Notes: a model not told the origin generated them from the letters alone. A DNA stretch of 64,000 nucleotides from Bacteroidales bacterium (GCA_030683155.1 JAUXMV010000019.1:6422-70421); one strand, 5' to 3'. Counted from the first letter of the stretch, positions 14,683 to 60,703 are shown. Numbers and translations are program-made.

Positions 14683-14779
14683 TACAACACATTAAGCGAA
14701 AAAGCTGGATGCCAAAATCAATCTTTATTCGAACCGGAGCTCACGGATTTATTTATAACGACAGTGCATTCTTTTCAGT

Positions 14780-15003
14780 TTTCTATAAGCAAGGTTATGG
14801 GTGTTTTGGTTCACAATTGGGCATGCCTGACCAGCTCACAACGAGCCCACAGGCAATCTGTTTCTAGACCAGAAAAGAAAGCCTGGATTTATAAAGCCTA
14901 TTCAAAAACAAATCGATAAATTTGACCTGACTACCAATGACATGCAAATTAGTAAATTGTAAATTACATGAATACAATTAGTTATGGAAACGTTAGTCAG
15001 AAT
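14780..15003 (+). repeat. Non-coding element A, copy 1
   Basis: By hand alignment, about 160 of about 178 core positions (14827-15003) match the reverse complement of 60020-60197. Weaker similarity extends to about 14780. Confidence 0.85.
14917..14924 (+). promoter_or_regulatory. Candidate -7 promoter box TAAATTTG inside element A
   Basis: Matches TAnnTTTG. It is conserved in both A copies and points toward the downstream cargo gene in both. Confidence 0.3.
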
Positions 15004-15109
15004 TACAGAAAACCTTATCACATACCAGACACCTTCATCCAAAAAATAAATTCTATCTACTGTGATTTTTTGGGGACTTCTTACACTAATCAGATGAAGA
15101 TTGATTTCA

Positions 15110-15601
15110 ATGGATAAAAAAAGCCGATTTATAAAAGTTATTAAACAGAACGAAGGACTGATTTTTAAAGTAGCTACACTTTATACAAACAGTCTTCAAG
15201 ACAAAGAAGACCTGTATCAGGAAATCGTCTTCCAGCTTTGGAAATCGTTCGACACATTCAATGAACAATCGAAATTAAGCACTTGGATGTATCGGGTGGC
15301 TATGAATACGGCTATCTATAATTTAAAGAGTGCTAAAAGACAAATAAACACTATTTCAATTGATACAGAAACAGAGTGGTTTGTTGACATAGTAGATAAA
15401 TCGGAAGAGGAAAGCATAAGACTGCTTTATGAAAGTATCCAAAGACTAAACCTACTGGAAAGAGGTATCGTTCTGCTTTACCTTGAAGGAAAAAGCCATC
15501 AGGAAATAGCTGAAATTGTTGGCATAACAATCAGTAACGTGGGCACAAAGATTTCACGAATCAAGGAGAAACTTAAATTTCAAATCATTAAAAAACAATA
15601 A
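15110..15601 (+). CDS. ECF-type RNA polymerase sigma-70 factor
   Basis: Region 2 is DLYQEIVFQLWKSF. The region 4 HTH is HQEIAEIVGITISNVGTKISRIKEKL. Confidence 0.9.
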   Translation: MDKKSRFIKVIKQNEGLIFKVATLYTNSLQDKEDLYQEIVFQLWKSFDTFNEQSKLSTWMYRVAMNTAIYNLKSAKRQINTISIDTETEWFVDIVDKSEEESIRLLYESIQRLNLLERGIVLLYLEGKSHQEIAEIVGITISNVGTKISRIKEKLKFQIIKKQ

Positions 15602-15603
15602 TT

Positions 15604-16197
15604 ATGGAACTGGAAGAAATGAGAAATGCGTGGCAAGAAATGAGTAAGCGGGTAGAAAAACAAGAATTTCTAACCAAACAAGTCGTTGAAAAAATGACGA
15701 CTGATAGATACAATTCTAAATTGAATAAAATTGGCATATCAGAATACATAGGCACTATAATATGCTATATAGGGGCTGCCTATTTAATAATTAATTTCAC
15801 AAAAATAGATGACACCTTGATGCAGGTCTTTGCTCTCGTTGCCATTTTGTTACTTTTTATTCTGCCCATTATTTCACTCAAATCGTTACGTGCGATGAAA
15901 AATGTAAACATCCCATCCAAAAGCTATTTGGAAACTATTGAGGATTTTGCGAAACGAAAAATCAGATTCCAAAAACTTCAAAAACTGAATGTTTCACTCG
16001 GTTTGTTTCTAATGCTTGTGGCAATCCCAGTACTATCAGCTGTGCAGGGTAAAGACATTGGTCAAATACCCTACTTTTGGACATTGATTTTCCCAATATC
16101 AATTGCATTTTTCTTGGCATTTGCCTATTGGGTACTGCGGTCGTACAACAAAATATTGAATGAAACGGAAAAAATGCTTTCCGACATCAACAACTAA
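15604..16197 (+). CDS. Hypothetical membrane protein, possible anti-sigma partner
   Basis: Starts 2 nt after the sigma gene stop. It has four hydrophobic helices. No family was recognised. Confidence 0.55.
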   Translation: MELEEMRNAWQEMSKRVEKQEFLTKQVVEKMTTDRYNSKLNKIGISEYIGTIICYIGAAYLIINFTKIDDTLMQVFALVAILLLFILPIISLKSLRAMKNVNIPSKSYLETIEDFAKRKIRFQKLQKLNVSLGLFLMLVAIPVLSAVQGKDIGQIPYFWTLIFPISIAFFLAFAYWVLRSYNKILNETEKMLSDINN

Positions 16198-16274
16198 CAA
16201 TCTAAACCAATATACTTTTCAAAACGGCAGAAAATATCTGCAACAGGATAGCTATGCCCTAAACAAACTAAACT

Positions 16275-17669
16275 ATGAAAAAAATACTTGCAATTTTAAG
16301 CCTCCTATTAATTACTACTTCCGGATTTTCTCAGGAATTGGAGGGAGTATGGAACGGAAACCTTGAAGTTCAATCAGGAAGAAAATTATTATTCATTTTC
16401 CAGATTTCTAAAACTGCTGACAAACTGGAATCTGAAATTGCAATCCCAAGCCAAGGCGTAAAAGGTATCAAGCCGACCCTGACAACTTTCGAAGATAATA
16501 CACTTTTCATTGATGCTTCAAATGTAGGGTTCAAATATACCGGCAAATGGAATGATACTTCAGGAAATATTGAAGGCACATTCCAAGAAGGGGTAAATAA
16601 AGTTCCTTTGGTACTTACTAAAGAAATCATTGAAGAAGTGAAACTAAACAGACCTCAAGAACCAATCAAGCCGTATCCATATCAGGAAGAGGAGGTAAAG
16701 TTTGAAAATCAAAGGGACAAAATGACCCTTGCAGGCACATTAACCCTTCCAAGACCATCAGGCAAAAAACCACCAGTGGTAATATTGATATCAGGAAGTG
16801 GTGCGCAAGACAGGGACGAATCCTTTGCCGGTCACAAGCCGTTTTTGGTTCTATCGGATTATCTTACCCGTAACGGAATTGCGGTTTTGCGATATGATGA
16901 CAGAGGATTTGGTGAATCTACAGGTAATTTTGCAGAAGGCACTACCGCAGATTTTGCTACGGATGTATTGAGTGCCATCGATTTTTTAAGAAACAGAACA
17001 GATATTGACACCAAAAAAATTGGTTTGGTAGGGCATAGTGAAGGCGCCATCATAGCTCCTATGGTAGCTAACCAATCAAAAGAGGTCGCCTTTATTGTAA
17101 TGCTGGCCGGAACAGGAACAGCAGGAAAAGAGGTATCACTGACCCAAGCGGTAGATTATCGGAATTTTCCAGTAGCTAATGAGAAGCAATATGAAGCCTA
17201 TGTAAAAAGAGCTATCGAAATAGCATCATCTGAAAAGAAAACAGACATAGTTAAGGTGGAGTTGACAGCGTTTTATCAAAATTCAGAAATACTAACATCA
17301 CTTCTCCCACCCAATGTGGATAAAGATGAATTTATCGAAAATCTTGTGTCCACCAGAACCACACCCTGGATCAGGTATTTTTATAATTACAATCCTGCCA
17401 ATGAAATCAGGAAAATCAAAATACCTGCATTGGCATTATATGGAAGTAATGACACCCAAGTACCATCAAAATATCATTTGGAGCCTGTTAAAGATGCATT
17501 GGCCGAAAGTAAATCCAAAAAATATGAAGTAGTTTTGCTGGAAGGTTTAAATCATTTATTTCAGGAAAGTAAAACAGGTCGTATTTCTGAGTATGCCCAA
17601 ATTGAACAAACATTTGCTCCCGAAGCACTGGAAATAATTGGTGGTTGGATTTTAAAACAAACCAGATAG
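16275..17669 (+). CDS. Secreted alpha/beta hydrolase
   Basis: Has a signal peptide, the GHSEGA nucleophile elbow and a lipocalin-like N-terminal region. Confidence 0.8.
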   Translation: MKKILAILSLLLITTSGFSQELEGVWNGNLEVQSGRKLLFIFQISKTADKLESEIAIPSQGVKGIKPTLTTFEDNTLFIDASNVGFKYTGKWNDTSGNIEGTFQEGVNKVPLVLTKEIIEEVKLNRPQEPIKPYPYQEEEVKFENQRDKMTLAGTLTLPRPSGKKPPVVILISGSGAQDRDESFAGHKPFLVLSDYLTRNGIAVLRYDDRGFGESTGNFAEGTTADFATDVLSAIDFLRNRTDIDTKKIGLVGHSEGAIIAPMVANQSKEVAFIVMLAGTGTAGKEVSLTQAVDYRNFPVANEKQYEAYVKRAIEIASSEKKTDIVKVELTAFYQNSEILTSLLPPNVDKDEFIENLVSTRTTPWIRYFYNYNPANEIRKIKIPALALYGSNDTQVPSKYHLEPVKDALAESKSKKYEVVLLEGLNHLFQESKTGRISEYAQIEQTFAPEALEIIGGWILKQTR

Positions 17670-17677
17670 GTTGTGTT

Positions 17678-18040
17678 ATGAAAATAAACTTAGAAGAAAA
17701 ATTCGCGAAAATAGCTAATCACTGGCATCCCTACATTATAGGGGAGCTTAACGAAAACTTTGTTAAGTTAGCAAAACTTAAAGGAGAATTGGTTTGGCAC
17801 AGTCATCAGGAAGAAGATGAAATGTTTGTTGTACTTAGTGGCATATTGATGATGGACTTTAGAGATGGGAAGACAATTTCTACTGAATCAGGAGAAATAT
17901 TGATAGTACCAAAAGGAGTAGAACACAGACCTTGGACTAATGGAGAAGAAGTAATGGTAATGCTTATCGAACCTAAAACTACCCAGCATACTGGAGAACT
18001 TAAAGTATCACAAACTATTGAAAAATTAGAATGGATTTGA
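17678..18040 (+). CDS. Cupin domain protein
   Basis: Cupin motifs are WHSHQEEDEMFVV and VPKGVEHRP. The ATG is at 17678. Confidence 0.8.
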   Translation: MKINLEEKFAKIANHWHPYIIGELNENFVKLAKLKGELVWHSHQEEDEMFVVLSGILMMDFRDGKTISTESGEILIVPKGVEHRPWTNGEEVMVMLIEPKTTQHTGELKVSQTIEKLEWI

Positions 18041-18066
18041 AGGGAGAGGCAAAAGTAACAGCTGGC

Positions 18067-18162
18067 AACACTAAGTCGAATAGCCAAAAAGCCAAAAAAA
18101 AAGAGCCATTATACCGCTGAGGTGTAATGGCTTTTTGGTCTATTCGCTGTTCAGCGAAACCC
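18067..18162 (+). repeat. Non-coding element B, copy 1 (imperfect palindrome)
   Basis: A 26-nt exact match links 18116-18141 to the reverse complement of 58363-58388, with flanking similarity. The arms AGTCGAATAGCCAAAAAGCC and GGCTTTTTGGTCTATTCGCT are complementary apart from bulged bases. Confidence 0.85.
18105..18136 (+). terminator. Rho-independent terminator candidate
   Basis: An 11-bp stem (GCCATTATACC / GGTGTAATGGC, one GT pair) closes the loop GCTGA and is followed by TTTTT. It lies downstream of the cupin gene. Confidence 0.55.
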
Positions 18163-18184
18163 GTAGTTGGGCTTCAGCTACATC

Positions 18185-18370
18185 ATGACCAAGAAAACAA
18201 TCAAAAGCACCTCAGCCGATGTGGGCTTGAAAGAACATTTCATGGAGATTCTTACATCATCAGGCCTGGCAGCCAACTTTGCAGGCATGATGTACGCTTT
18301 GCTTTATACACCGCTACTTTTTTTTCCGGCATTGGCATTATTCAAACCTAAGATATTCATAAAACTATAA
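18185..18370 (+). CDS. Possible small membrane protein (61 aa)
   Basis: The ORF MTKKTIKSTS...LLYTPLLFFPALALF has a hydrophobic C-terminus. No homology was recognised. Confidence 0.25.
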   Translation: MTKKTIKSTSADVGLKEHFMEILTSSGLAANFAGMMYALLYTPLLFFPALALFKPKIFIKL

Positions 18371-18430
18371 GTTGCACGGATGCTTTCAGACATCAGGTTT
18401 TTTGGGTTTTATCCGACCGTAATAAGTGGA

Positions 18431-19600
18431 TCATGTTGTTTTATCCTTTCCAAGCCATGTAGCTTTGTGCCATAATCCCTCAAGTGGTCCATGCCTGTGA
18501 TTTTTGGCCCAGTACCTGCAAAAAAAGACAAAAATCAGAGTTAGTGAAATGCCAATCAATAAACTGTAAGTTGCACCGGTATGTTTGTACAGCCCCAGAC
18601 CAAATCCGTAATACAGGTAGGCGCCGGCAACAGATTGCATGATGTAGTTGGTCAGGCTCATCCGACCCATCGGAGAAAAGAAATTCAGCAAAACACGAAT
18701 ACTGTTGTGGTAAAAAAGAAGTGTAAATCCTGAAACCAGAACCAATGTAAAAGCCAGATTTGACCAGCTTTTAACCAACAAATCAATTGATTGTAAGCTT
18801 GCCGGATCTTTTACCCATGTTGCCAGATTTTTCTGAAAGATGAAAAGGAACGTAAAAGATAGTGTAGAAAACAACAAAGCTTTTGCCCACAATTTTTTGT
18901 TTTTCGTATTGGGTGTAAACACTCCTTTTCGCCCCGCCAGCATTCCGAGCAGAAAAAGCGCCAGAATAATGAAATACCTGCCATTTTCAAAATTCCAGAG
19001 CAGTACAGCCCATTTTCCATTGGTCAGGTTGCCTTTTGCTGCGTCCAAAAAAGAACTGTTCATCAGGTAAGAGCCCATTTGACCAAAATATGCCCAGGAA
19101 GCTGGGTCTGAAACCGGCAGTCCGGGATGAAGGAGTGCTTCGATAAGTTTATAGATCTCAATGGGCTGCAAAAGCAAAATTACTGAAACTGCCAGCAATT
19201 GTTTATTGCTCAATCGCGACAGGGGAATCAGAAAGAATCCCAGAATAGCATAAATCGACAATATGTCTCCCTGATAGAAAACCGAATTAATGAGTCCAAA
19301 CAATAACAAAAGCGTCATTCTCCAGGCAAACCTGCCACTGAAACCCTTGCCTTTTTTTGCTTGATTGTCTGACTGGATAAAGAACGTAAGCCCAAAAAGC
19401 AAAGCAAATAGGGCAAAGGCTTTTCCTCCAAACAAAAAGAAAACTGAACTCCAGATTGCACCATCAAGCGTCTTTATCCATTCGGGCAGGCTCTCAGGAA
19501 AATAATACAGGTCAAAATGCTCGATATTGTGCAGCAACATAATGGCCGCTACGGCAAAACCGCGAAGGGCATCCACAACTTCGAGTCTTGGCTTTTGCAT
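18431..19600 (-). CDS. DUF418/YeiB-like membrane protein
   Basis: Multi-pass protein with the N-terminal VDALRGFAVAAIMLLHNIEHF typical of the family. Confidence 0.8.
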   Translation of the reverse strand: MQKPRLEVVDALRGFAVAAIMLLHNIEHFDLYYFPESLPEWIKTLDGAIWSSVFFLFGGKAFALFALLFGLTFFIQSDNQAKKGKGFSGRFAWRMTLLLLFGLINSVFYQGDILSIYAILGFFLIPLSRLSNKQLLAVSVILLLQPIEIYKLIEALLHPGLPVSDPASWAYFGQMGSYLMNSSFLDAAKGNLTNGKWAVLLWNFENGRYFIILALFLLGMLAGRKGVFTPNTKNKKLWAKALLFSTLSFTFLFIFQKNLATWVKDPASLQSIDLLVKSWSNLAFTLVLVSGFTLLFYHNSIRVLLNFFSPMGRMSLTNYIMQSVAGAYLYYGFGLGLYKHTGATYSLLIGISLTLIFVFFCRYWAKNHRHGPLEGLWHKATWLGKDKTT

Positions 19601-19649
19601 TTGATGTAAATGTTTTTATACTAGGTGGTTAGCATAAAGCAAGTGCCAT

Positions 19650-21911: not shown

Positions 21912-22120
21912 TTCTGTTCTTTTAGAATTTCTAAATCATCGTAAAGAATATGTAGTCAACACTTTATGCTTACGAGCAATATTTCCGGATAAATTTTCAT
22001 TTTATTTCAAAATGGGAACTACAGGCTTTTTTCGATGGTTTTTTATCAATTATTTTATTTATTCAGTGTTTCAATTTTTGCTTTTCAGCGGTCAAGTTTT
22101 GGAGAACCGCAACTTTACAA

Positions 22121-23119: not shown

Positions 23120-25541
23120 CTTTGTTTAGTATTATTTCAACTTCAAATATCTCATTATTTTTTGAAAGTGGAAGCGTTCCATTCCACGCTTTGCCGTTGA
23201 CGCGGCAAGACTGCTTTTTACCACCATGATTGACAATTTTCACAAGATAGGTATTGTCTCTGAATTTTCTGGTGAAGCTAAGTTCCTTTATCGAGGATGG
23301 AAGGTTGGGTGCAATGGTCAAGCCATCATAATCCGGTTTAATGCCTAAGATATATTGACTTACAGTATAAAAGTTCCAGGCTGCAGTGCCGGTAAGCCAT
23401 GAGTTTTTTGCCTCGCCGGGCTTTGCGGCATCCTTTCCTGCAATCATCTGAGAATACACATAAGGCTCGGTTTTATGCAATTCGCTGATGTCTTCAAGAT
23501 AGGCCGGTGTTATTCTTTTGTAATAATCAAAAGCTAAATCAGCATGTCCAATCATGGTTTCTGCAATGATAATCCATGGATTGTTATGGCAAAAAATACC
23601 CGCATTTTCTTTATATCCGGGAGGATAAGTAGTGATCTCGCCCAGATTAATGTGATATTTTGTGTAGGCAGGATTCAACAGAACGATGCCGTATGGGGTT
23701 GCTAATTTCTCTTTTACGCTTTTCAAGGCTTTTTCAGCACGACCATCTTCGATTCCAATTCCGGCCATGACGCAAAATCCCTGCGGTTCGATGAAAATCT
23801 GTCCTTCTTCATTTTCCTTGCTTCCGACTTTATCGCCATAAAAATCATATGCTCTTAAAAACCAGTCGCCATCCCAGCCGGCTTTGTCGATAGCGCTTTT
23901 CATGTTTTCGACATGAATTCTTGCCTGATTTGCCTCTTCTGTTTTGCCAGTAAAATCGCAAATGCGCGCAAACTCCTCACCATATAAAACAAACATTCCT
24001 GCTATCATCACTGACTCGGCTGTTTTTCCGATTTTGTTGTTCGTAGTCTGAAACGACTCTCCCGGTTTATCAGAAAAGCAGTTCAGGTTGAGGCAGTCGT
24101 TCCAGTCGGCACGACCGATCAATGGTAGTTTATGCGGCCCTAAGTTATTCACTACATGATAAAAAGAACGTTTTATATGTTCAAAAACCGGAGCGTCATT
24201 TCCGTTGTTATTAAAAGGGGCTGTTTGCTCGAGCAGGGACCAATCGCCGGTTTCCTTCAGGTAAGCAGAAACGGAAAGGATAAGCCACAATGGATCGTCA
24301 TTGAAATTGCCTCCCACTTCATGGTTTCCTTTTTTTGTTAAAGGCTGATACTGATGGTAGGCGCTTCCATCTTCCAATTGGGTACTTGCCAGATCGATGA
24401 TACGTTGTCGTGCAAGCTCAGGCGCAAGGTGCACCATGCCGATTATGTCCTGATTGGAATCACGGAAACCCATTCCACGGCCTATTCCAGACTCAAAGTA
24501 AGAAGTGCTTCTCGAGAAGAAATAAGTCACCATGCATTGGTATTGATTCCAGATGTTTACCATACGATCCAGTTTCTCATCTTCGGAGCGGATATTCAAT
24601 TTTGCAAGTAAATCTGACCAAAAAGCCTGAAGCGCTTTCAATGCATCGTCCACCTGTTCAGAGGTCTGAAACTGACTGATCATTTTTGTCGCCTTCGATT
24701 TATTAATGACATTTGGAGCTGAAAACTTTTCCTCGTTGTCATTTTCCACATATCCCAGAACAAAAACAAATTCTCTTTCTTCGCCAGCTTCAAGGTTAAC
24801 TTCGATAAAATGCGACGCCACCGGCGACCACCCATGTGCAACAGAATTTCCACTTTGCCCTTTGCAAACCATTTCGGGATTGTCGAAACCATTATAGGTT
24901 CCTAAAAAAGTTTCGCGATCGGTATCAAATCCATTGATATCGGTATTGACGTTGTAAAAAGCAAAATGATTCCGGCGCTCGCGGTATTCGGTTTTGTGGT
25001 AGATGCAGGAGCCTTCAATTTCAACTTCTCCGGTATTGAAATTTCGTTGAAAATTAGTCATATCGTCCAAAGCATCCCACAATGCCCATTCGGCAAAAGA
25101 GTGCAATTTGACAGCTTTTTGGGTGGCGCACTTGTTCGAGAGTTTTACTTTGATTACTTCTCCATCAAATTCAAGCGGAACAAAATACAACACCTCAGCC
25201 TCAAGCAGGTTCAACTCGCCTGTAATTTTTGAATAACCCAAACCATGCCGGCACTCGTAGCTATCCAGCTCATTTTTAACCGGTTTCCAGCCCGGCGACC
25301 AGATTTGGCCTCCATCATTGATATAAAAATATTTTCCTCCGTCATCAACAGGCACATTGTTGTATCTGTTTCGGGTAATTCTGCGTAAACGGGCATCTCT
25401 ATAAAAGCTATATCCCCCCCCGGTGTTGGATATGATGCTGAAGAAATCGCCAGTACCCATATAATTAATCCATGGAAAAGGCGTCCTTGGATTCGTAATT
25501 ACATACTCCTTATTTATATCGTCAAAAAATCCGTATTTCAT
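23109..25541 (-). CDS. GH94 cellobiose (cellodextrin/chitobiose-type) phosphorylase
   Basis: 810 aa, closely colinear with characterised cellobiose phosphorylases. Shared segments include [54 protein letters not shown] and [12 protein letters not shown]. Confidence 0.9.
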
Positions 25542-25598
25542 GTTAGATTTGTCTTTTAAAATTAATTTCTTCGATTGAAATAAAATGCGCTTCTGAGA

Positions 25599-27203: not shown

Positions 27204-27473
27204 CGCTTAAATTTTAGTAATCAGGTCAGAAAGGATTCTTCTTTCACAATGCACAAAGTTTAATCAAAAACATGTTATTGATTTTGCCTTGACCTTGATT
27301 ATCCCAATCCACTGTATTGCAACGGATTGCAGCCAAGATACTGGCAAAGTTAAGAGCAGAATCAATTACGTGTAATTTCATTTGCGCTGATTCAATCAAC
27401 AAACACCAAAAACAAGCGCAAGACGCCAAGGTCAAGTACCACAACAAAAACACCTAATTACTATCAGAATATA

Positions 27474-28403: not shown

Positions 28404-28411
28404 TATTTTTG
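28404..28411 (+). promoter_or_regulatory. Candidate -7 promoter box TATTTTTG upstream of susC-like gene
   Basis: Matches TAnnTTTG in the AT-rich divergent intergenic region. Confidence 0.2.
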
Positions 28412-40001: not shown

Positions 40002-40003
40002 GT

Positions 40004-52559: not shown

Positions 52560-52885
52560 TTGATAAATTTTATAAAAACTTGTTAACTATGTTTACTTTA
52601 AGCATTTCATGTATGCTTATAACATCTCAAAAGGTGGTAGTACAAAAGTACTAATTCTTTATTAAACCGAGGCTGACAATTTCATGAATTGATGGAGGAC
52701 AGCCAAATAAATAAACTCTGCATGTTTGGTCTTAGTTCAGAAACACCTGGAATTAAAGAAATTCGCAAAATACATTGCTTTGAAATTGTTTCATCAAGGC
52801 TTCCAAAAGAAAGTAATCTCAGAAATTTCTGCTCTAATGTTAAAACCTTAAATAAAACAAAAAGCAATGATTTGAAACAAAAAAA

Positions 52886-52908
52886 AGCAGCACAATGGCT
52901 GCTTTTTT
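52886..52908 (-). terminator. Terminator hairpin downstream of ssrA
   Basis: The stem AGCAGC / GCTGCT is flanked by A and T runs on both sides, so it could act bidirectionally. Confidence 0.5.
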
Positions 52909-52909
52909 G

Positions 52910-53303
52910 TGGAGCTGCAGGGAGTCGAACCCTGGTCCAAACAAGGAATACCTAAGCTTTCTACATGCTTATGCTGTTATTGGTTTTCGTACAGTGCAAG
53001 GAAACAGCCATCCTAAACCCTGTCTTATCTTCTGAATTTCGCTTTGGTGTCGAAGTTCCGCCAAAGCTATCCCGAATTTGATTAGCACCCCGTGATCAGG
53101 CCGGTATCAGGCATTTCCACCTGCGGGATGTCTCGTCCGGACACCTTGTGTCTGGATAAGCTTAATCTAATTTGATTAGATTAGGCTGCAAGAGCAAAAT
53201 TGTTTTCGCCAATTGTTGTTCGCGATCAAGATTTACGAGCGTCATCGCAAGGCTCGGCATGCTTACATAACCATTCATCTTGCTGTCAAAACCAGTCAGC
53301 CCC
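52910..53303 (-). ncRNA. ssrA: Transfer-messenger RNA (tmRNA)
   Basis: The minus strand starts GGGGCTGACTGGTTTTGACAGC. The tag frame GGC GAA AAC AAT TTT GCT CTT GCA GCC TAA encodes GENNFALAA and lies at 53181-53210. The 3' end is GGTTCGACTCCCTGCAGCTCCA, with a G3-U70 pair in the acceptor stem. Confidence 0.93.
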
Positions 53304-53544
53304 GATGTTTTGAATCCAGCAAAAACTTTGCCGGAAACAGCTGCAAAGATAGATAAAAAGTGAGCCCGTGTTGGGTAAATAATAAAATTCCTGCTAAATA
53401 TCTGATTGAAAGCATGTTTGAAAAAATAACAGCAAATAACTGAATCAGCAGAACTATTTCTGTGATGACATTGGTTCTTAAAAAAAGTCAAATACTGACA
53501 CACAAAAAATCATTTGACTACATTTGTCTTGAATTCAGTTTTTT

Positions 53545-54855
53545 ATGAACCTGCAAAAATTTAATATACTGGTAGCTGTTGCATTGCTTTCAATGATTGG
53601 CGTTGTTGTGATGCAGGTATACTGGGTTCAGAATGCAGTTCAGCTGAAGGAGGAGCAGTTCAGCCGAAGCGTGAGTATCGCAATGAAGTCTGTTTTGAAC
53701 AGAATACTTGAGCTGAATACTGACATTACAATAAAAAGACTTGCAGACGACTTGCCGTGCAATATTGGCAAAACAGATATAACTGAAGCTATTCCGCCAC
53801 GTCTGCTCGACTCTTTACTCCGGGTAGAACTTGGATGCATGAAAATTATGAAAGGCTATGAATATGCTGTTTACAATAAAGCAAACAATAAAATAGTCAT
53901 TGGAAATTCGAAAGATTTTGCAAGTGAGATCCATTTTTCTGAACATCAGCAAAGTGTGGAGGCACTTTTTAAGCCGGGAAGCTATTATTTATCATTGTAC
54001 TTTCCAAATCAAAAATCGACAGTGCTGAAACAGCTTTCAGGCTGGATGTTGCTTTCTGCGATCTTTTTACTGACGGTAATTTTGAGTTTCTGGTACACCA
54101 TATTTACAGTGTTCAGACAAAAGAAATTGTCTGAAATGAAAAGCGATTTCATCAACAATATGACCCATGAATTCAAAACGCCGATCTCTACTATCTCCAT
54201 TGCTGCTGAGATGCTGCTCAAAGAAAATGTTTACCGTTCTGAAGATCGTATAAAAAAATACGCTTTAGTGATTCTAAACGAAAACAAAAGACTTCAGCAA
54301 CAAGCTGAACAGGTGCTTCAAAGTGCTACACTGGAAAACGGAGCAATCAGACTTAATTTGAAAAAATCGGACATCCATCGTTTACTAAACAAAATCGTTG
54401 GCAACTTCGAGTTGCCCATAAAAGAGCTTTCCGGCAAGATAGAAACACATTTTAATGCTGACCCAATTGAAGTGTATGTTGACAGAATGCACATGACAAA
54501 TGTTTTTGCCAATCTGATAGAAAACGCAATCAAATATTCTGCAAATCCTCCGGAAATTTCAATCAATACAAATTTGCGCAAAGATGGCATTGCAATAAGC
54601 ATTTCCGACAAAGGGATTGGCATTGAAAAGGAAAACCAGAAATTGGTTTTTAAAAACCTTTTTCGGGTTCACACCGGTGATGTTCATAATGTAAAAGGCT
54701 TTGGCATAGGCCTTTTCTATGTGAAAAAAATTGTAGAAATGCATGGCGGTAAAATCACACTTCAAAGCGAGCCCAACAAAGGTTCCACATTTGAAGTTTT
54801 TTTACCTTTTAAAAATGAATTAAAAAATGAAAAGCATGAACACATTGACTCCTGA
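53545..54855 (+). CDS. Sensor histidine kinase (RprX/PhoR-like)
   Basis: Has two TM helices, the H-box MTHEFKTPIS and an HATPase domain with GIGLFYVKKIVEMHGG. Confidence 0.88.
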   Translation: MNLQKFNILVAVALLSMIGVVVMQVYWVQNAVQLKEEQFSRSVSIAMKSVLNRILELNTDITIKRLADDLPCNIGKTDITEAIPPRLLDSLLRVELGCMKIMKGYEYAVYNKANNKIVIGNSKDFASEIHFSEHQQSVEALFKPGSYYLSLYFPNQKSTVLKQLSGWMLLSAIFLLTVILSFWYTIFTVFRQKKLSEMKSDFINNMTHEFKTPISTISIAAEMLLKENVYRSEDRIKKYALVILNENKRLQQQAEQVLQSATLENGAIRLNLKKSDIHRLLNKIVGNFELPIKELSGKIETHFNADPIEVYVDRMHMTNVFANLIENAIKYSANPPEISINTNLRKDGIAISISDKGIGIEKENQKLVFKNLFRVHTGDVHNVKGFGIGLFYVKKIVEMHGGKITLQSEPNKGSTFEVFLPFKNELKNEKHEHIDS

Positions 54856-55552
54856 AGATTTTAAAATCCTGCTCGTGGAAGACGATCCTGGTTTAAGCAT
54901 GGTTTTGCAGGATTACCTTGAGCTGATGCAATACAAAACTATTCTTGGAGGCGATGGAGAAGAAGGTTTAGCGCGCTTCAAAGAACAAGAATTTGACTTG
55001 TGCATCCTTGATGTGATGCTTCCAAAAATGGATGGTTTTGCTCTGGCCACAGCCCTGAGACAAATTAAAAAAAATATCCCGATCATTTTTCTGACAGCAA
55101 AATCATTAAAAGAAGACCGGTTGAAGGGTTTTTTGCATGGTTGCGACGATTATATCACAAAACCATTTAGTACGGATGAACTCAATTTACGCATCAAAGC
55201 CATTCTTCGGAGATGCGTCGTGAGGTATCCTCAAATACATGCCGGAGAGCAAAAGATTTTCAACATTGGCAAGCTTGTTTTTGACGTCCCCAATCTTGAA
55301 ATTTCTTCAGAGAACGCAAAATACAGCCTCACCCGAAAAGAAGCAGGACTGCTGAAGCTGCTGTGCGAAAACGAAAACAAGCTGTTGTCACGCGAAATTG
55401 CACAACAAACAATCTGGGGAGAAAGTGATTATTTTATAAGCAGAAGCATGGATGTTTTTATAGCACGTCTACGAAAATATCTCAAAGAAGATCCTGATAT
55501 TAAGATAAAAAATGTACACGGCTCCGGGTTCATTCTTCAGGTAAATAAATGA
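54827..55552 (+). CDS. OmpR/PhoB-family response regulator
   Basis: Receiver domain (LLVEDD, LDVMLP) plus a winged-helix output domain. It overlaps the kinase gene. An alternative ATG is at 54836. Confidence 0.9.
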   Translation: MKSMNTLTPEDFKILLVEDDPGLSMVLQDYLELMQYKTILGGDGEEGLARFKEQEFDLCILDVMLPKMDGFALATALRQIKKNIPIIFLTAKSLKEDRLKGFLHGCDDYITKPFSTDELNLRIKAILRRCVVRYPQIHAGEQKIFNIGKLVFDVPNLEISSENAKYSLTRKEAGLLKLLCENENKLLSREIAQQTIWGESDYFISRSMDVFIARLRKYLKEDPDIKIKNVHGSGFILQVNK

Positions 55553-55636
55553 GGAAAAACTCATCGATATCAAGAATGGATGCTTGTTAAACTATAATTA
55601 TCAGATTTTTAACCTCTATTAAAAGCTCAAACACAA

Positions 55637-56050
55637 ATGACCAAAGAATCAAAATTAATGAGTGGTATTATCCTGCTCTCTATACCAACAATCATGTTTG
55701 GCGGCAACTTTCTGCTCGGACTTCTGTCGGGCAGCTACCCTGAAATGGAGCTCACAGAATTTCAAAAATCGATGTTCAGAGCCGGCCATGGTCATGCAGG
55801 CGTATTGGTAATTCTTGCCTTGATAGCGCAGTTTATGACAGATCATGCAAAACTGACCAATAGCTGGAAATGGATCGTAAGAAGCGGATTTCCAGCGGCA
55901 TCCATTCTGGTGAGCGGCGGCTTTTTTGCTGCTGCCGGCGGACCCGGATTGATCCAGCCCAATTCATTTATAGCAATTTTATATTTAGGAATTCTGGTGT
56001 TGACAGTTTCCCTTGTCGCGCTTGGAGCCGGCCTTATCCGAAGCAAATAG
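55637..56050 (+). CDS. Hypothetical membrane protein
   Basis: 137 aa with four hydrophobic helices. Confidence 0.55.
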   Translation: MTKESKLMSGIILLSIPTIMFGGNFLLGLLSGSYPEMELTEFQKSMFRAGHGHAGVLVILALIAQFMTDHAKLTNSWKWIVRSGFPAASILVSGGFFAAAGGPGLIQPNSFIAILYLGILVLTVSLVALGAGLIRSK

Positions 56051-56069
56051 CAGTCTCTGCAAAATGATT

Positions 56070-57197
56070 TTACTTCTCAGGAACAAGTTTAAAAAACAAG
56101 CCCGGGCCTTCAGTTAACGCATAAATATAGCCATCCGGGCCTTGTCTTATATCGCGGAATCGGGCAAATTCTTCCAGAAGTTTCTCGGTATAAACTACTT
56201 TGCTTCCATCAAAGACCAATCGTTGTATTTGTCTTCCTGCCAAAGCACCAACCAAAAGATTGTTTTTCCAGTTTGGATAAATATCGCTTGTGACGAAATC
56301 CATGCCGCAAGGTGCAATCGACGGAACCCAGTAATGGATTGGATCGGTGATGCCGGGTAAGGTAGTGTCGGTGGTAATGATGGTGCCATTATAGTTGATT
56401 CCGAAAGTAGCTTTTGGCCAGCCATAATTTGCGCCTTTTTGCTCGATGTTGATCTCATCACCCCCTTTTGGGCCGTGTTCGTGTGTCCACAATTCCTTTG
56501 TCACAGGATGAAGTGCCATGCCCTGAATGTTGCGGTGACCGTAGTTCCAGATTTCAGCTTTTGCTCCTTCCACACCAACATAAGGGTTGTCGGCTGGTAT
56601 GCTACCATCAGCATGAAGACGCATTACTTTTCCATTGTGGTTTGCCAGGGTTTGCGCATTGTTCATCACACCGCGATCTCCAATCGTGAAATAAAAAGCG
56701 TTTTCATTTTCAAAAACAATGCGGCAGCCAAAATGGTATTGCAATTCAGTGAAAGGGTCTCCTCTGAAAAGCTCCTCCAGTTGAACAAGATTATTTCCTT
56801 CAAGCTTTGCCCTTGCGATAGCCGTACTTCCAATGGCGCCTTCATTGGTGGAATAGGCAAGATAAATCCAGCCATTATTTTCATAATCAGGGTGTAAAAC
56901 AACATCGAGAAGCCCACCCTGTCCATGCGCCCATATAACAGGCAAGCCTGAAACAGATTCCTTTGAAAGTTGACCGTTTTCAAAAATCCTGAGTTTTCCG
57001 GGTCTTTCGGCCAATAAAATTCTGCCATCCGGCAAAAAGGCCATACTCCATGGATTTTCTAGACCTTCGGCAAGTACTTCAACCCTGATTTTATGGGTAC
57101 TCTCAATATTTGGCACTTCAATCGGAGGATGTTGACTGCCTGTGCAGCCGAAGTAAACAAAGAGTGCCAAAAGGGAAACTGCAGATAATTTTTTCAT
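56070..57197 (-). CDS. PQQ-dependent sugar dehydrogenase (soluble aldose/sorbosone dehydrogenase family)
   Basis: Has a lipoprotein-type signal. Beta-propeller family motifs include GLENPWSMAFLPDGR, HFGCRIVF and GHRNIQG. Confidence 0.85.
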   Translation of the reverse strand: MKKLSAVSLLALFVYFGCTGSQHPPIEVPNIESTHKIRVEVLAEGLENPWSMAFLPDGRILLAERPGKLRIFENGQLSKESVSGLPVIWAHGQGGLLDVVLHPDYENNGWIYLAYSTNEGAIGSTAIARAKLEGNNLVQLEELFRGDPFTELQYHFGCRIVFENENAFYFTIGDRGVMNNAQTLANHNGKVMRLHADGSIPADNPYVGVEGAKAEIWNYGHRNIQGMALHPVTKELWTHEHGPKGGDEINIEQKGANYGWPKATFGINYNGTIITTDTTLPGITDPIHYWVPSIAPCGMDFVTSDIYPNWKNNLLVGALAGRQIQRLVFDGSKVVYTEKLLEEFARFRDIRQGPDGYIYALTEGPGLFFKLVPEK

Positions 57198-57388
57198 GAT
57201 AATGGAGATTTATGGGTTCAAAAAGTGGCATAAAAGTACAATAATCTAAACAAATCTTCTCCAATATCCATACAAAAACAATCCTAATGCAAACTTTCAG
57301 ACTAAAATCCAAAGAAACGCTTGCCAAATACTATCTTTGGCATTCAATAAGCCAAAGCGCTAAATTTCGGTTATCAAAACTTAAAAAT

Positions 57389-58270
57389 ATGGATGTAACT
57401 ATTAAGCATAAGGTGATTGTTTTCATTGCCTTTACATCAATAATTCAACTTGCATTTTATGGAAATATTCAGGCCCAGGAAACACTAAAAGTGATGAGTT
57501 GGAACATCCGTCTCGACACACCGCATGACGGCAAGTTTGCATGGGATTTCAGAAAAGAAAAATTTGTCGCCTTCGTGAAAGAGCAAAAAGCCGATTTACT
57601 TGGCTTTCAGGAGTTGCTTCATAACCAACTGACTTATACCGCTGATCATCTGACTGAATACAGTTGGTTTGGTGTTGGAAGAACTGATGGAAAAATGGCG
57701 GGAGAATATTCGCCGGTATTTTTCAAAACTGAGCGCTTTGATTTTTTGCAGGGAGGAAATTTCTGGCTCTCTGAGGAGCCTGAAACTGCAGGTTCGAAAG
57801 GATGGGATGCAGCTTATGAAAGAATAGTGAGCTGGGTGCAGTTGTTTGATAAAAATTCAGGAGATACACTTTGGTTTTTCAACACGCATTTCGACCATAT
57901 TGGTGAAGAAGCACGCAAAAACAGCGCTTTACTTATCCTTCGGAAAATAAATGAGCTTACAATCGGGCAAACAACAATATTAACAGGAGACTTGAATGTT
58001 AAACCGGATAATGAAGCCTACAAAATGATGAGCAATCCACCTTCTTTGTTGTTTGATTCGCGCAAAATTGCCTTTGGAAGCAAGATGTACGAGCAGAATA
58101 CTTTTACTGGTTTTGATGATGATCCGTCCAATGATTCACTCATTGACTATATTTTTCACACGCAAACATTGCAACCCCATAGTTATGAAGTATTCCTGCC
58201 GAATACTGATGACTTTTACTATTCCGATCATCTGCCTGTCGTTACTGTTTTCAACCTTAATACTAAATGA
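57389..58270 (+). CDS. Endonuclease/exonuclease/phosphatase (EEP) family protein, secreted
   Basis: A signal-like N-terminus follows the ATG at 57389. EEP motifs are MSWNIR, GFQE, FNTHFDH, GDLN and SDHLPV. Confidence 0.82.
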   Translation: MDVTIKHKVIVFIAFTSIIQLAFYGNIQAQETLKVMSWNIRLDTPHDGKFAWDFRKEKFVAFVKEQKADLLGFQELLHNQLTYTADHLTEYSWFGVGRTDGKMAGEYSPVFFKTERFDFLQGGNFWLSEEPETAGSKGWDAAYERIVSWVQLFDKNSGDTLWFFNTHFDHIGEEARKNSALLILRKINELTIGQTTILTGDLNVKPDNEAYKMMSNPPSLLFDSRKIAFGSKMYEQNTFTGFDDDPSNDSLIDYIFHTQTLQPHSYEVFLPNTDDFYYSDHLPVVTVFNLNTK

Positions 58271-58341
58271 CATTTAGAGATTTGTGCCGATAATACAGAT
58301 CATTGGAAAATGCGAATTAAGCAATCGGAGTTAGTCTCTAT

Positions 58342-58433
58342 GGGTTTCGCTGAACAACGTACAGACCAAAAAGCCATTACACCTCAGCAGTAAAAAGGTT
58401 CATTTATTAGGGCTTTTCGGCTTAGTGTTGTGG
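58342..58433 (-). repeat. Non-coding element B, copy 2 (inverted relative to copy 1)
   Basis: The reverse complement aligns with 18067-18162, including a 26-nt exact core. It starts 8 nt after the antitoxin stop codon. Confidence 0.85.
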
Positions 58434-58440
58434 GCCGTAC

Positions 58441-58755
58441 TTATTGTCCAAGACTGATTTTGAAATGAGGTAATTCAACACTTAACATAACTTTCGCCTG
58501 TAAAGCGTTGAATACTCTCATAAGCGTCTCTATTGTTACGTTACTGGCATTATTTTCAATTCTTGAAATTTGTGCTTTTTGAACGCCAATAAGTTTTCCT
58601 AGCTCCGCCTGGGTTAATTTTCGCTCTTGTCTGGTCTGTTTTATAGCTTGCCCAATCAAGTCCATTTGCAATTCATATTCAAATCTGTCTCGGTTTGGAG
58701 TGCCAATTTTCCCGATAAGTTTGTCTTGAACTTCGTCTAATGTATGAGTTTTCAT
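58441..58755 (-). CDS. XRE-family HTH antitoxin (HigA-like)
   Basis: The HTH is LTQAELGKLIGVQKAQISRIENN. It overlaps the upstream toxin gene by 4 nt. Confidence 0.85.
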   Translation of the reverse strand: MKTHTLDEVQDKLIGKIGTPNRDRFEYELQMDLIGQAIKQTRQERKLTQAELGKLIGVQKAQISRIENNASNVTIETLMRVFNALQAKVMLSVELPHFKISLGQ

Positions 58756-59111
58756 TTTCTTTTCTTTTTAATGATTTCTTTATCTTCAAAATATCGTGAA
58801 CGAACTTGCTTTGCTTTTTGGATTTCGCTGTCAGGTGTTTTACTGGTTTTCTTGACTATTCCATGTGTTGAAACAACAAGTGTATTCTCAGAATCTGTCT
58901 TGTCCCAAAATGCTAACAATCTGTATTGCAGCCCTTGATGAAGTGCTTTGAACTCCCAGATTTCATCTTTCAGTTTTTTGAAAAGTTCAGGATCATGTCT
59001 TGTCTGCGCTTTACGAATATTAAAAAGGATTTTTTCGTAGTGTTTCTTTTCAAGACTGCTGAGAAATTCAAAAGTTTCATCTAAAAAAACAATTTCAAAA
59101 AGCTTGTCCAT
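58752..59111 (-). CDS. Type II toxin, RelE/ParE superfamily (Gp49/DUF891-like)
   Basis: 119 aa. The organisation, with a small basic protein upstream of an XRE antitoxin, and the IWEFKA...YRLLAF motif are typical of HigB/Gp49-like toxins. Confidence 0.75.
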   Translation of the reverse strand: MDKLFEIVFLDETFEFLSSLEKKHYEKILFNIRKAQTRHDPELFKKLKDEIWEFKALHQGLQYRLLAFWDKTDSENTLVVSTHGIVKKTSKTPDSEIQKAKQVRSRYFEDKEIIKKKRK

Positions 59112-59195
59112 TCATTTAATTCTTGATAGTGCAAAGATACAGTAATGTTTCATTATATAGAAACTATTTTTGGGTTGTGATTTTTCTCACTTTGG

Positions 59196-59331
59196 CCCAA
59201 ACGGACGTTTTGCAGATTTGCGATGGGCGGAACTTATACCATAAATGTTGATGCGGAGAACCAAACTTTGATTAACCACAAATGTGTCTGCGGAGCACTG
59301 AACCGCCACTTTTGCCAAACCCGTGTTATAG
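59196..59331 (-). repeat. Element D: 136-nt imperfect palindrome
   Basis: On the minus strand, CTATAACACGGGTTTGGCAAAAGTGGCGG pairs imperfectly with CCGCCCATCGCAAATCTGCAAAACGTCCGTTTGGG. It lies 50 nt downstream of the PH-domain gene stop. Confidence 0.6.
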
Positions 59332-59379
59332 GGCGTTTTTCTTTCGGTCGTCAATGAGTTGTCTGTCCACATAGTTGTT

Positions 59380-59871
59380 TTAATTTGCTATGAAATGTTC
59401 GTAAAGCCAATAAATCAAATATCCAACTGCAATAAGTCTAACGATAATACTAAACGCGGAATGTTTTACTTGTCCTTTTTCAAGTGTCAATGGAAGTTGT
59501 TGTTGATTCGACCATTCTGAATTTAGTTGCATTCCGAATTGATAGTTTTTGTCGTCAGTTGTTTGAACTTTTAAAACTTGTCCACCACCAAAAAGCGAAT
59601 TGATTTTTATTAATTGAGCAGTCGCAATGGTGTCAAGAGGAATTGTCCACTTACCACAAACAAGTTTTTTGTCTGTCAGTAAAACAACTGCTCGTTGTGA
59701 AGTAACCCAATCGAGTCCACGCTGAATGTCTTGATTTGTAGTCGTCACTATACCTTTACTTGCGTCTGCCGCCAAAACCCTTTCGTTCGGATTGTTAAGT
59801 TCAAACTTTCGCCTTACTCGTCTTGTCCCGTAAATTAGGTCAACAAGTCCTTTTAATAGTTGATTTATCAT
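59380..59871 (-). CDS. Bacterial PH-domain-like protein with C-terminal TM helix
   Basis: 163-aa ORF. The central region resembles bPH/YdbT-like domains and the tail (FSIIVRLIAVGYLIYWLY) is hydrophobic. Assignment is tentative. Confidence 0.55.
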   Translation of the reverse strand: MINQLLKGLVDLIYGTRRVRRKFELNNPNERVLAADASKGIVTTTNQDIQRGLDWVTSQRAVVLLTDKKLVCGKWTIPLDTIATAQLIKINSLFGGGQVLKVQTTDDKNYQFGMQLNSEWSNQQQLPLTLEKGQVKHSAFSIIVRLIAVGYLIYWLYEHFIAN

Positions 59872-60019
59872 TGTCGTTGTGTCGTATTTTAAAATCCTGA
59901 CTAACGTTTTTGTTAAATACTGATCTTCAATTATTTACATCTCATTGATCTATTCGAAATTTATGTTCTATTTCCACTAAACGTTAGCTTCCGAAATCAA
60001 CTTTTGTAAAGTAGGGTGA

Positions 60020-60245
60020 ATTCTGACTAACGTTTCCATAACTAATTGTATTCGTGTAATTTACAATTTACTAATTTGTAAATCATCGGTAGTCAGGGCA
60101 AATTTATCGATTTGTTTTTAAACAGGCTTTGCAAATCCGGGTTTTCTTTTCCTGTCTAGAAACAGATGGTCAGTGGGCTCGTTGTGAGCTGTTCAGGTAT
60201 TCCCGCTCCTAAACCAAAAATACCCAAAACCGCTCTTTTGAATAC
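60020..60245 (-). repeat. Non-coding element A, copy 2 (inverted relative to copy 1)
   Basis: The reverse complement aligns with 14780-15003. It contains the same TAAATTTG box (60099-60106) pointing toward the PH-domain gene. Confidence 0.85.
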
Positions 60246-60413
60246 TAGACCAACCTTGCAAAAGACAATAGAAAGTCCAAAAACCTGCTATTCTTCAAAG
60301 AACCTCTGTTCAAATATATGGCAAAAAACACCAAAAACCGTCAATATGTGCATAACACCTTCTGGCTCTGGGTGGATGTAGTTCAATCCCAGAAGTTTCG
60401 GGAACTCATCGCT

Positions 60414-60439
60414 GGGTTTCCGACTTGTCGGAACAGACC
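60414..60439 (-). repeat. Partial third copy of the element-B distal end
   Basis: GGGTTTCCGACTTGTCGGAACAGACC shares its first 7 nt (GGGTTTC) and last 7 nt (ACAGACC) with 58342-58367 (GGGTTTCGCTGAACAACGTACAGACC). Confidence 0.45.
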
Positions 60440-60533
60440 GTTCAGAGTCCTATTTATTGGTGACTGGTGTTCATTCATATCCGACTGTATGTCATTTATT
60501 TAGCTTTTATTTTCTTGTCATTCTCAACCTGCA

Positions 60534-60703
60534 CCAACCTACCCACGAAGCATAAATTTATTCTGTCTTTTTGATCGTGGCAGTCCTAAAACCGCCCTGA
60601 AAGGCTGTTTCTTGGGATTGAAAGGCGGAAGCTCTTTTGCAAGCCTTTGGTTTGACCGTTGGCTCGTGTGGACTTGCAAATGTGCTAACGACTGTGGGTT
60701 GGC
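60534..60703 (-). repeat. Element E: about 170-nt imperfect palindrome abutting the hsdM stop codon
   Basis: On the minus strand GCCAACCCAC pairs with GTGGGTAGGTTGG (60534-60546 on plus-strand coordinates). There is an inner CCGCC / GGCGG stem. Confidence 0.5.

Follow-up and report, generated by a model that had tools for sequence, protein, structure and literature searches.

The window analyzed here is a 64,000-nucleotide (nt) stretch of a Bacteroidales bacterium genome in which an earlier note had described structured repeats behind several genes and two pairs of inverted repeats (A, B ... B′, A′) around a 40-kb segment. We consider it probable (about 0.72) that these repeats are mostly the dead ends of two IS91-type elements inserted at one spot in cassette sites, together with a portable promoter piece (A), and that they do not make up a single mobile or invertible unit. 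According to this reading, the window would comprise a 40-kb chromosomal segment between two separate variable islands that face each other and carry accessory and defence genes. These islands would be built as integron cassette arrays without an integron integrase (IntI), namely co-oriented genes or small operons, each with a trailing structured site that runs from a YAAC box just past the stop codon to the vicinity of a GTT box, and of which elements D and E would be unoccupied examples. Two related rolling-circle elements of the IS91 family, each ~2.5 kb long and encoding first a Xer/IntI-like tyrosine recombinase and then an HUH-Y2 transposase, would have inserted repeatedly into such sites at YAA↓C (the arrow marks the junction), with their genes always antisense to the cargo. 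The transposase-side end would abut the cargo and fold like an attC site, and the other end (...TTSAA), together with the displaced C, would rebuild the AAC box. Both elements would now be dead in this genome, leaving the solo ends B and F and one 360-nt miniature on contig C85, and the relics would have been cut by later deletions and nested insertions (module S, of IS200/IS605 type). A would be a separate portable module, positioned 10–45 nt before unrelated start codons, in which a promoter box of the Bacteroidetes type is combined with a palindromic leader or site.

The genome of the window (G000), assembled into 111 contigs totalling 4.74 Mb, has a completeness of 98.6% (G-codes denote genomes, C-codes contigs, and L-codes such as L154 and L190 metagenome contigs). 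It holds ~17 copies of B, 6 of A, ~5 of D and ~25 of F, the genome's most abundant family, which the earlier note had missed. The copies cluster on ~10 contigs, and within each cluster all are co-oriented with the neighbouring genes. The start of the repeat lies 0–57 nt past the stop codon of a co-oriented open reading frame (ORF) for 10 of 15 B copies, 10 of 14 F copies and three of four D copies, and the cargo of these arrays consists of accessory genes: Fic, AAA_21 and DUF4143 ATPases, toxin-antitoxin (TA) pairs and methylases. The two inverted pairs around the 40-kb segment exist as described, A/A′ (14804–15004 versus 60019–60219) extending over 201 nt with 88% identity and B/B′ (18082–18166 versus 58338–58422) over 85 nt with 85% identity, and all five boxes claimed behind gene 3′ ends were found at their coordinates. 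The proposal that A, cargo and B form a unit did not hold, as A and B occur independently of each other elsewhere in the genome.

Element B (18070–18166, plus strand) is a solo relic of the transposase-gene-side end of IS91-family element 1. It is preceded by a target box, GGCAAC (18064–18069, plus strand), that lies 23 nt past the cupin stop codon and resembles the R″ inverse core of an attC site. B′ (58330–58426, minus strand) is a solo relic of the same end from which part of the left arm has been deleted; its target box, CACAAC (58432–58427, minus strand), lies 8 nt past the antitoxin stop codon. B is an attC-like imperfect hairpin with one bulged base and a centre composed of an A-run, an 11-bp stem and T5. 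When the palindromes were folded as single-stranded DNA and compared with 200 shuffles, B had a z-score of −5.4, with none of the 200 shuffles equally stable, E had a z-score of −2.2 (6 of 200 equally stable), and B′, at −0.1, folded no better than shuffled sequence. Of the imperfect palindromes described behind four genes, B is thus strong and E moderate, and D and B′ are no better than shuffles. In an alignment of 16 B copies of the genome, unrelated flanks give way to conserved sequence at a YAAC box (14 of 16); 3′ of B, the copies form three classes rather than diverging freely. A common AYAACAC box had also been proposed: this heptamer is not clearly enriched in the window (23 observed versus 14.8 ± 4.0 expected, with 23 reached in 2 of 100 shuffles), but the position of the junction at YAAC is non-random in the aligned B copies.

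Comparison with other genomes identified B as the terminal 100 nt of an IS91-family insertion sequence and not as a cassette's own attC site. B is patchily distributed in other species of the genus and family, with up to 95% identity, while rsgA proteins within the genus are 62–73% identical. The IS91-type transposase domain PF04986 was detected in 30 of the 121 family genomes scanned. On G044:C37, G024:C82 and G036:C147, its gene and a B copy are on opposite strands within a few hundred bases of each other, the B copy being located ~240 nt past the stop codon of this 393–394-aa transposase gene. B is 91–95% identical in G044 and G024; the copy in G036 is a diverged variant with 74% identity over ~100 nt and 94% identity confined to a 34-nt core, and the order there is cargo ORF, 40 nt, B, transposase (antisense) and recombinase (antisense). 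An exact-pattern scan of species-representative genomes yielded 12 further B loci in 8 metagenome-assembled genomes (Bacteroidales, Bacteroidetes or Lentimicrobiaceae), at which B begins after YAAC (11 of 12) or AAAC (1 of 12), the upstream DNA is unrelated in every case, and transposase sequence is found antisense in six.

Element 1 is ~2.5 kb long and runs from a left tip (TGTTCAAGCGAAACCC...) through genes for a 304-aa tyrosine recombinase and an overlapping 394-aa transposase, followed by a ~240-nt spacer, to a right end (...GGGTTTCGCTGAACAGCGAATAGACC-hairpin-GGCTATTCGACTTAGTGTT(R)) that is the reverse complement of B; a 16–17-nt inverted match relates the left tip to sequence ~85 nt inside the right end. 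The G044 transposase scored 389 bits on NF033538 (NCBIfam, IS91 family transposase; cut-off 125 bits). The recombinase scored 167 bits on TIGR02249 (integron integrase), below the cut-off of 265 bits, and it was classified as Xer/IntI-like rather than IntI because the IntI-specific middle segment is unmatched. The short tail 3′ of B′ and of four other copies (AGACTAACCTGCC...) comes from the interior of element 1, the start of which is retained in the window after B′ (AGACTAAC...). Since neither profile hidden Markov models nor tblastn detected an IS91 (Y2) transposase in the window's genome, its B copies are relics; a 360-nt miniature at C85:7777–8136 has retained both element 1 ends along with codons 1–32 of the recombinase gene. 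The box directly 3′ of the rsgA stop codon (14683–14715, plus strand) consists of TACAAC↓AC and then ~25 nt similar to the start of B (ACATTAAGCGAAAAAGC). Judged by eye against the B alignments, it is probably a third B fragment of ~30 nt, which lies below the BLAST threshold.

Element F is the transposase-side end of elements of a second IS91 subfamily. The window contains a 265-nt solo relic of the transposase-gene-side end of element 2 (60195–60467, minus strand; left junction CACCAAT↓AAATAGGACTCTGAAC) and the last ~40 nt of another copy (14787–14826, plus strand), which is fused to A, as in two other F–A copies. The boundaries of F are sharp on both sides, and it forms small hairpins with compensating changes. 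A search with its first 21 nt, for which contig counts are lower bounds, retrieved more than 120 metagenome contigs among the matches listed; in at least 17 of the listed contigs, a near-full-length IS91-family transposase lies antisense at ~+340 to +1370 from the motif (that at L154:323–1501 scored 401 bits on NF033538), with a 300-aa recombinase next at ~+1460 to +2320. Because an antisense IS91 transposase and recombinase adjoin F, we assigned it as an end of the same kind as B from another subfamily. Two other assignments were rejected: that F is a decayed part of a recombinase gene, since tyrosine recombinase homology in an F-recombinase fusion ORF starts only past the F boundary, and that module T (described below) is the left end of element 2, to which it has no similarity.

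The junction and orientation of both elements are fixed. The junctions of element 2 read YAA↓TAAATAGG on the cargo side and ...TTAGTTCAA↓C or ...GGATTTAGTTCAA↓C on the far side, so that the box is split after its second A and before its C, and the YAA↓C junction was also found in 9 full copies of element 2. Those of element 1 (YAAC↓A... and ...CGCTTGAAC↓A) follow the same rule within one base. The element genes are antisense to the cargo in every case, and no target duplication was seen. The far end of the elements reads ...TTSAA (S = C or G), and from these junction sequences the ends of both elements would rebuild an AAC box before the displaced remainder of the target. The AYAACAC box is then target plus the first element bases, because both elements sit antisense at YAA↓C past cassette stop codons. 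After removal of the miniature, the C85 site (GATAAC↓CCGTATAAGCGTAATGCGGG ... CCCGCACTACGCTTATAC TTGACC GTTGAAAC) forms an extended imperfect palindrome bounded by AAC and GTT boxes, which by eye makes a good hairpin; the flanks of element 2 in metagenome contigs are similar, those in L190 (GCCATATTCCAAGCGGG ... CCCGCTCGGCACATGGC GTCGAAC GTTGGCG), for instance, likewise forming a good hairpin by eye, and the DNA past the left end of element 1 in G044 and G015 resembles the body of palindrome D. We regard the homing of IS91-type elements into folded sites at AA↓C, with one end mimicking the site and the other restoring the AAC box, as well supported.

The IS91 family (IS91, IS801, IS1294 and ISCR relatives) includes some ISfinder-listed members with an upstream tyrosine-recombinase gene, and the target of IS91 is GTTC/CTTG. 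Elements 1 and 2 share with this family the HUH-Y2 transposase (389 and 401 bits, as above), the upstream recombinase gene, hairpins near the ends, and a fixed short target (here GTTR, or YAAC on the cargo strand) entered in one orientation with no visible target duplication. In contrast to known members, their target is the inverse-core box of attC-like sites past stop codons rather than a mere tetranucleotide, the transposase-side end is an attC-like fold of 100–265 nt, and the other end rebuilds the AAC box. The transposase is present in relatives that bear B and in metagenome contigs that bear F, and the window holds relics only. In the literature we found no description of an IS91-type element with an attC target or this target rule. 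Insertion into attC sites is also known for the IS1111-attC group of the IS110 family and for group IIC-attC introns. These too insert into folded cassette sites in an orientation-specific manner, with copies and relics piling up in arrays, but they depend on a DEDD transposase or a reverse transcriptase instead of HUH-Y2 and use a different insertion point; to our knowledge, they have been described in Proteobacteria and not in Bacteroidota.

From their anatomy, elements D and E look like unoccupied integron-like cassette sites, an assignment that we make with moderate confidence on account of the C85 and L190 sites, the D-like flanks of element 1 and the fold of the D family. D (59190–59330, minus strand; TATAAC ... 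GTTTGGG) is a candidate unoccupied attC-like site with a weak hairpin and belongs to a family of ~5. E (60528–60703, minus strand; GCCAAC ... GGTTGGTG) is a 176-nt imperfect palindrome that abuts the hsdM stop codon and is a candidate attC-like site in essentially a single copy. Four complete D-family sites share a 30-pair consensus fold in which 88% of cells are paired and 6 pairs are changed on both sides; in controls, 81% were paired in shuffles (0 of 500 reaching 88%) and 31–48% when the partners were slid. A helix of 21 pairs, with 5 compensated pairs, is conserved in the family. AAC and GTT boxes are present in D, E and the sites hit by the elements, and their flanking bases fit RYYYAAC/GTTRRRY loosely. 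No IntI above the TIGR02249 cut-off was found in the 98.6%-complete genome, the best matches being two pieces of 86–87 bits from a 501-aa recombinase in which model positions ~170–240 are skipped. The earlier statement that no integrase is visible in the window was borne out, the check for intI was negative for the whole genome, and because no integrase is nearby the arrangement resembles clusters of attC sites lacking integron integrases (CALIN). As in integrons and CALIN, co-oriented accessory, TA and defence genes are each accompanied by a 100–180-nt imperfect palindrome with an AAC box on the gene side, a GTT box at the far end and bulged bases. Unlike in integrons, there is no IntI in the genome, the boxes are loose, some "cassettes" contain several genes, and interspecies homology starts inside the site rather than at G↓TT. 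Published surveys have found integrons to be rare in Bacteroidetes (PMC9024848).

That homology concerns the TA cassette and suggests that the islands move. A 665-nt block made up of this cassette and the right part of D has 91% identity between the window (58628–59291) and another species (G015:C19:2244–2908), with at least 95% identity across much of both genes; the rsgA proteins of the two species are 71% identical. The TA pair is the terminal cassette in G015 as well; a shorter B-like relic comes after it, the neighbouring core gene is a different one (DUF4153), and the D site is interrupted by a relic of the element 1 left end. A 501-aa ORF after this cassette was considered as an array recombinase and rejected, being a DUF4153 membrane protein.

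Element A (14827–15004, plus strand) has a conserved core at 14890–15004 with a sharp 3′ boundary and an inverted copy, A′, at 60019–60196 (minus strand). We aligned the core in 19 distinct copies from five genomes, and matches were found in 10 genomes representing 5 genera of the family. The consensus consists of TTCAAAAACAAATYGATAAATTTG, CTGACTAMC, a variable inner palindrome and GTTAGTCAGAAWT; in the window it reads TTCAAAAACAAATCGATAAATTTG, which holds a TAnnTTTG −7 box, and CTGACTACC ... inner palindrome ... GTTAGTCAGAATT. Conservation ends abruptly past GTTAGTCAGAAWT, an ATG follows 10–45 nt on in 11 of the 19 copies, and the start codons before which A is distributed are unrelated. In G034:C37, A stands before successive genes, with the first three copies 807–960 nt apart, and copies of A are frequently preceded by the last part of F. 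The sigma-A promoters of Bacteroidetes have a −7 consensus of TAnnTTTG and an upstream TTTG-like −33 box. TAAATTTG, which is present in nearly all 19 aligned copies, matches this −7 consensus; no clear −33 box was seen. We infer that A is a portable promoter with a structured palindromic leader that is placed before unrelated cassette genes.

Searches of Rfam, at the gathering score or E up to 5, gave no match for A, B, D, E or F, and the matches obtained were limited to transfer-messenger RNA (tmRNA), a tRNA and one DUF805b motif. This motif (C85:13355–13387; 43 bits versus a gathering score of 35.6) lies directly 3′ of another A copy and 5′ of a 248-aa gene, and it is the sole Rfam match near these elements. 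The box AACGTTAGTCAG at the 3′ end of the A core also recurs at the end of a spacer, module G, ~20 nt before the start of a 163-aa gene, with a looser copy (AACGTTTAGTGG) in between; the three sites are at 59884–59909, 59990–60003 and 60019–60035. Module G (59877–60022, minus strand) is common to C37 and C27 and ends in the second AACGTTAGTCAGGATTT box ~20 nt before the start codon, and it may be an ORF-less unit bounded by two A-end boxes.

The relationship of the two islands to the segment between them was assessed with a near relative, G123, one assembly of the genus, whose contigs matched the central segment and far flank at 76–90% nt identity. The chromosomal segment (18236–58288) was compared at its two ends, which match G123:C7 (18236–25874) and G123:C257 (53198–58288) with 76–88% nt identity. 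G123:C257 runs through window positions 53198–58288 and then straight into C76:77271, so 12.5 kb is absent from G123. This right island (C76:64710–77270) comprises the window from 58289 onward and 6.8 kb past the window end, and contains B′, the TA pair, D, the 163-aa gene, A′, F, E, hsdM and further defence-type genes. Inspection of its ORFs revealed no obvious integrase gene, the Pfam scan having covered those inside the window. At its inner edge (58289–58329, minus strand), ~10 nt of element 1 internal sequence (AGACTAAC) and ~30 nt of other sequence are joined to the common segment. On the left, G123:C7:3285–4379 is an intact 364-aa acyltransferase-like gene, of which the window has retained the last ~46–50 codons (membrane protein remnant, 18221–18370, plus strand), fused to B and ~50 nt of module S (18167–18220, plus strand), a truncated candidate left end of an IS200/IS605-type element inserted in the element 1 end. 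From these comparisons, B and B′ are the last items of two separate variable regions on the same segment. The ends of the segment in G123 are without such repeats, and its orientation toward the right flank is unchanged. The comparison gives no support to the suggested inversion or mobility of the 40-kb segment, and the mirror-image layout around it is most likely a coincidence.

Other explanations of the repeats were weighed against this evidence. One holds that each of B, B′, D and E is an attC site belonging to its cassette, in a classical integron array that has lost its integrase, with B a homogeneous attC type like the Vibrio cholerae repeats. It would suit the anatomy of B (YAAC ... L″/L′ arms with one bulged base ... 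GTTCAGC, 100 nt, z-score −5.4), its location 8–23 nt past stop codons and its ~17 co-oriented copies that are 80–93% alike. We find it improbable, and for B largely refuted, given that B is 91–95% identical in species with rsgA only ~70% identical, that it lies ~240 nt past an IS91 transposase gene in G044 and G024 (as does the diverged B in G036), that the sequence past it is internal to element 1, that the far end of the element and a split host site are seen in G044, G015 and C85, and that no IntI in the genome reaches the cut-off. What survives of the attC/CALIN idea in the earlier note is the integron-like setting, in which co-oriented genes each have a structured YAAC...GTT site 0–57 nt on; B, being an IS91 end, drops out of it. 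Least probable of all is that the repeats are a lineage-specific family of repetitive extragenic palindromic sequences or bacterial interspersed mosaic elements (REP/BIME), miniature inverted-repeat transposable elements (MITEs), or terminators or 3′ untranslated region elements, spread by a REP-associated tyrosine transposase (RAYT) type of enzyme or by gene conversion and unlinked to cassettes. The repeats do resemble REP/BIME and MITEs in being multi-copy, structured, extragenic and just 3′ of genes, Y1 (IS200/RAYT-type) transposase genes are present in the genome, one true miniature of 360 nt with both ends exists on C85, and the centre of B (A-run, 11-bp hairpin, T5) has the shape of a bidirectional terminator, a role compatible with its being a relic. 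However, the elements are 100–265 nt long versus 20–40 for REP and lack target duplications, and only their cargo-side boundary is sharp, the other side running into element-internal sequence or a few classes. Their orientation is strictly tied to the cargo, with one orientation per cluster, the Y1 gene beside a B copy belongs to module S, and in other genomes they are physically linked to IS91 transposase genes as the ends of an autonomous element. The REP alternative of the earlier note therefore fails on size and anatomy, and MITE-like is an apt description only of miniature deletion derivatives (C85:7777–8136).

It is also very unlikely that the nested repeats A, B ... B′, A′ are functional, either as inversion substrates or as a composite element carrying the 40-kb segment. 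Two inverted pairs of 85–201 nt with 85–88% identity do lie 40–45 kb apart, and homologous recombination between them is physically possible, but near-relative contigs show segment ends without repeats and a maintained orientation to the right flank, the right island is a simple gain or loss of 12.5 kb, and the 12–15% divergence of the copies argues against frequent exchange. With numerous further copies of A, of B and of F spread over ~10 clusters, one facing pair is unremarkable. A different proposal, which we judge unlikely though less so than the preceding ones, is that A, and not D or E, is the true recombination site (an attI or attC equivalent with a built-in promoter), B and F being incidental parasites. 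The boxes of its core (GACTAMC ... variable inner palindrome ... GTTAGTC) are near reverse complements, its sharp 3′ boundary precedes unrelated start codons by 10–45 nt, A is the repeated element before successive genes of one array in G034, and in two C85 copies the inner palindrome has been swapped for a different one. Yet folding is weak (z-scores of −0.9 and −2.1), the outer stem is uncompensated in the G034 copies, most copies have no AAC in the left box, and a promoter with a structured 5′ leader accounts for the same facts at the RNA level. A broader scheme that embraces IS91-type relics, cassette sites and A alike is that Bacteroidota have an IntI-free cassette system parallel to integrons, with sites parasitized by IS91 elements and with A as a promoter-bearing recombination site, so that a cassette travels with its promoter. 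We offer it only tentatively, as a role of A as a recombination site, and the occurrence of recombination at all, are not well supported.

Several observations weigh against the interpretation of the repeats as IS91-type ends in integron-like cassette sites accompanied by a promoter module. The window and the neighbourhoods of the arrays contain no intact element and no candidate array recombinase, and the only full-length non-Xer recombinase of the genome is the 501-aa protein on the 3-kb contig C83. The label "attC-like" is based on anatomy read by hand, the window copy of D folds no better than shuffled sequence (z-score +0.2), and the D-family fold is supported by four sequences only. Conservation past the GTT of B, F and A extends 10–15 nt beyond what a crossover at G↓TT would leave, and the block of homology that includes the TA cassette starts in the middle of D and not at its GTT box, unlike in classical integron exchange. 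The promoter in A is a motif match rather than a mapped start site, and the assignment of origin and terminus to the element ends follows only from position 3′ of the transposase gene. The left island is not cleanly comparable, as G123 has 9% contamination and is without a close copy of window 1–18200.

With these results, the window no longer contains a candidate 40-kb composite or invertible unit, which removes a false lead, and ~50 unexplained repeats of the genome can now be named by annotators. To IS91-type homing into cassette sites they add a second and very widespread subfamily (F; the >120 metagenome contigs among the matches listed), and the relic ends B and F are easy sequence tags for finding arrays. 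If it is true that the arrays exchange cassettes, they would constitute a large, barely described gene-sharing system in a phylum with few reported integrons. A is a candidate portable promoter for Bacteroidales and could serve genetics in the group.

Modules S and T follow many copies of B and some of F, and the B-S-T unit is 410 nt long with at least six copies. At G000:C48:24138–24836, a B copy and module S are followed by an intact 150-aa Y1 (IS200/IS605-type) transposase gene (24477–24836; 138 bits). For this reason S and T were assigned as left and right ends, probably of an IS200/IS605-type element that is nested in IS91 ends, and B-S-T looks like a miniature of such an element nested in an IS91 end. 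The alternative that S is the C-terminus of a DDE transposase (from MTKKTIKRATADVGLIFTAYNLRR) was rejected in view of the intact Y1 gene after B-S on C48 and the lack of a full-length gene in frame. The 501-aa tyrosine recombinase (G000:C83:315–1820) has a ~220-aa N-terminal extension and is encoded on a 3-kb repeat-bounded contig, as is its counterpart on G123:C30. Three diverged C-terminal fragments of a similar recombinase, starting from ~residue 388 (C76:528–683, C14:33109–33441 and C37:7153–7416), each follow an F relic with the same junction and in cargo orientation. Upstream (5′) of the 501-aa recombinase gene, a tandem repeat array with a 21-nt period was observed at G000:C83:2275–2745, with related arrays on C2, C27 and C85. 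A 539-aa recombinase located 2.7 kb 5′ of an F-type insertion (L154) was considered as the head of an array and rejected, as the next three genes are 7–143 nt apart without long sites.

The gene identities in the earlier note were confirmed by Pfam for rsgA, the ECF sigma factor, membrane protein, hydrolase, cupin, toxin and antitoxin; the gene called "PH-domain" had no Pfam match. Cargo unit 1 (15101–18040, plus strand; ORFs and Pfam) consists of the ECF sigma factor (15101–15601), the membrane protein (15604–16197), an alpha/beta hydrolase (16275–17669) and the cupin (17645–18040), all on the plus strand. The region 3′ of rsgA in seven members of the genus showed no common gene order and was uninformative. 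On the minus strand of the right island are the TA cassette (58441–59111; Gp49/HigB-like toxin at 58752–59111 and helix-turn-helix antitoxin at 58441–58755, by Pfam), the 163-aa cargo gene formerly called "PH-domain" (59380–59871), and hsdM with upstream defence-type genes (60704–64000), which are part of the 12.5-kb island. The 40-kb segment contains a tmRNA gene (52907–53303, minus strand; Rfam 155 bits, tag peptide GENNFALAA) that is the integration site of neither island. Two further repeat families were seen. G123:C7:4424–4552 contains a 125-nt insertion that is absent from the window at 18414/18421; this sequence has at least 13 copies with 85–95% identity in the window's genome (C89, C8, C3, C64, C47 and others) and forms a separate, MITE-like family. 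At the far end of the right island, ~6.3 kb past the right end of the window (G000:C76:76719–77179), lies a ~450-nt repeat with no convincing ORF, whose family has ~10 copies (C26, three on C43, C59, C64, C84, C70, C38 and C27).

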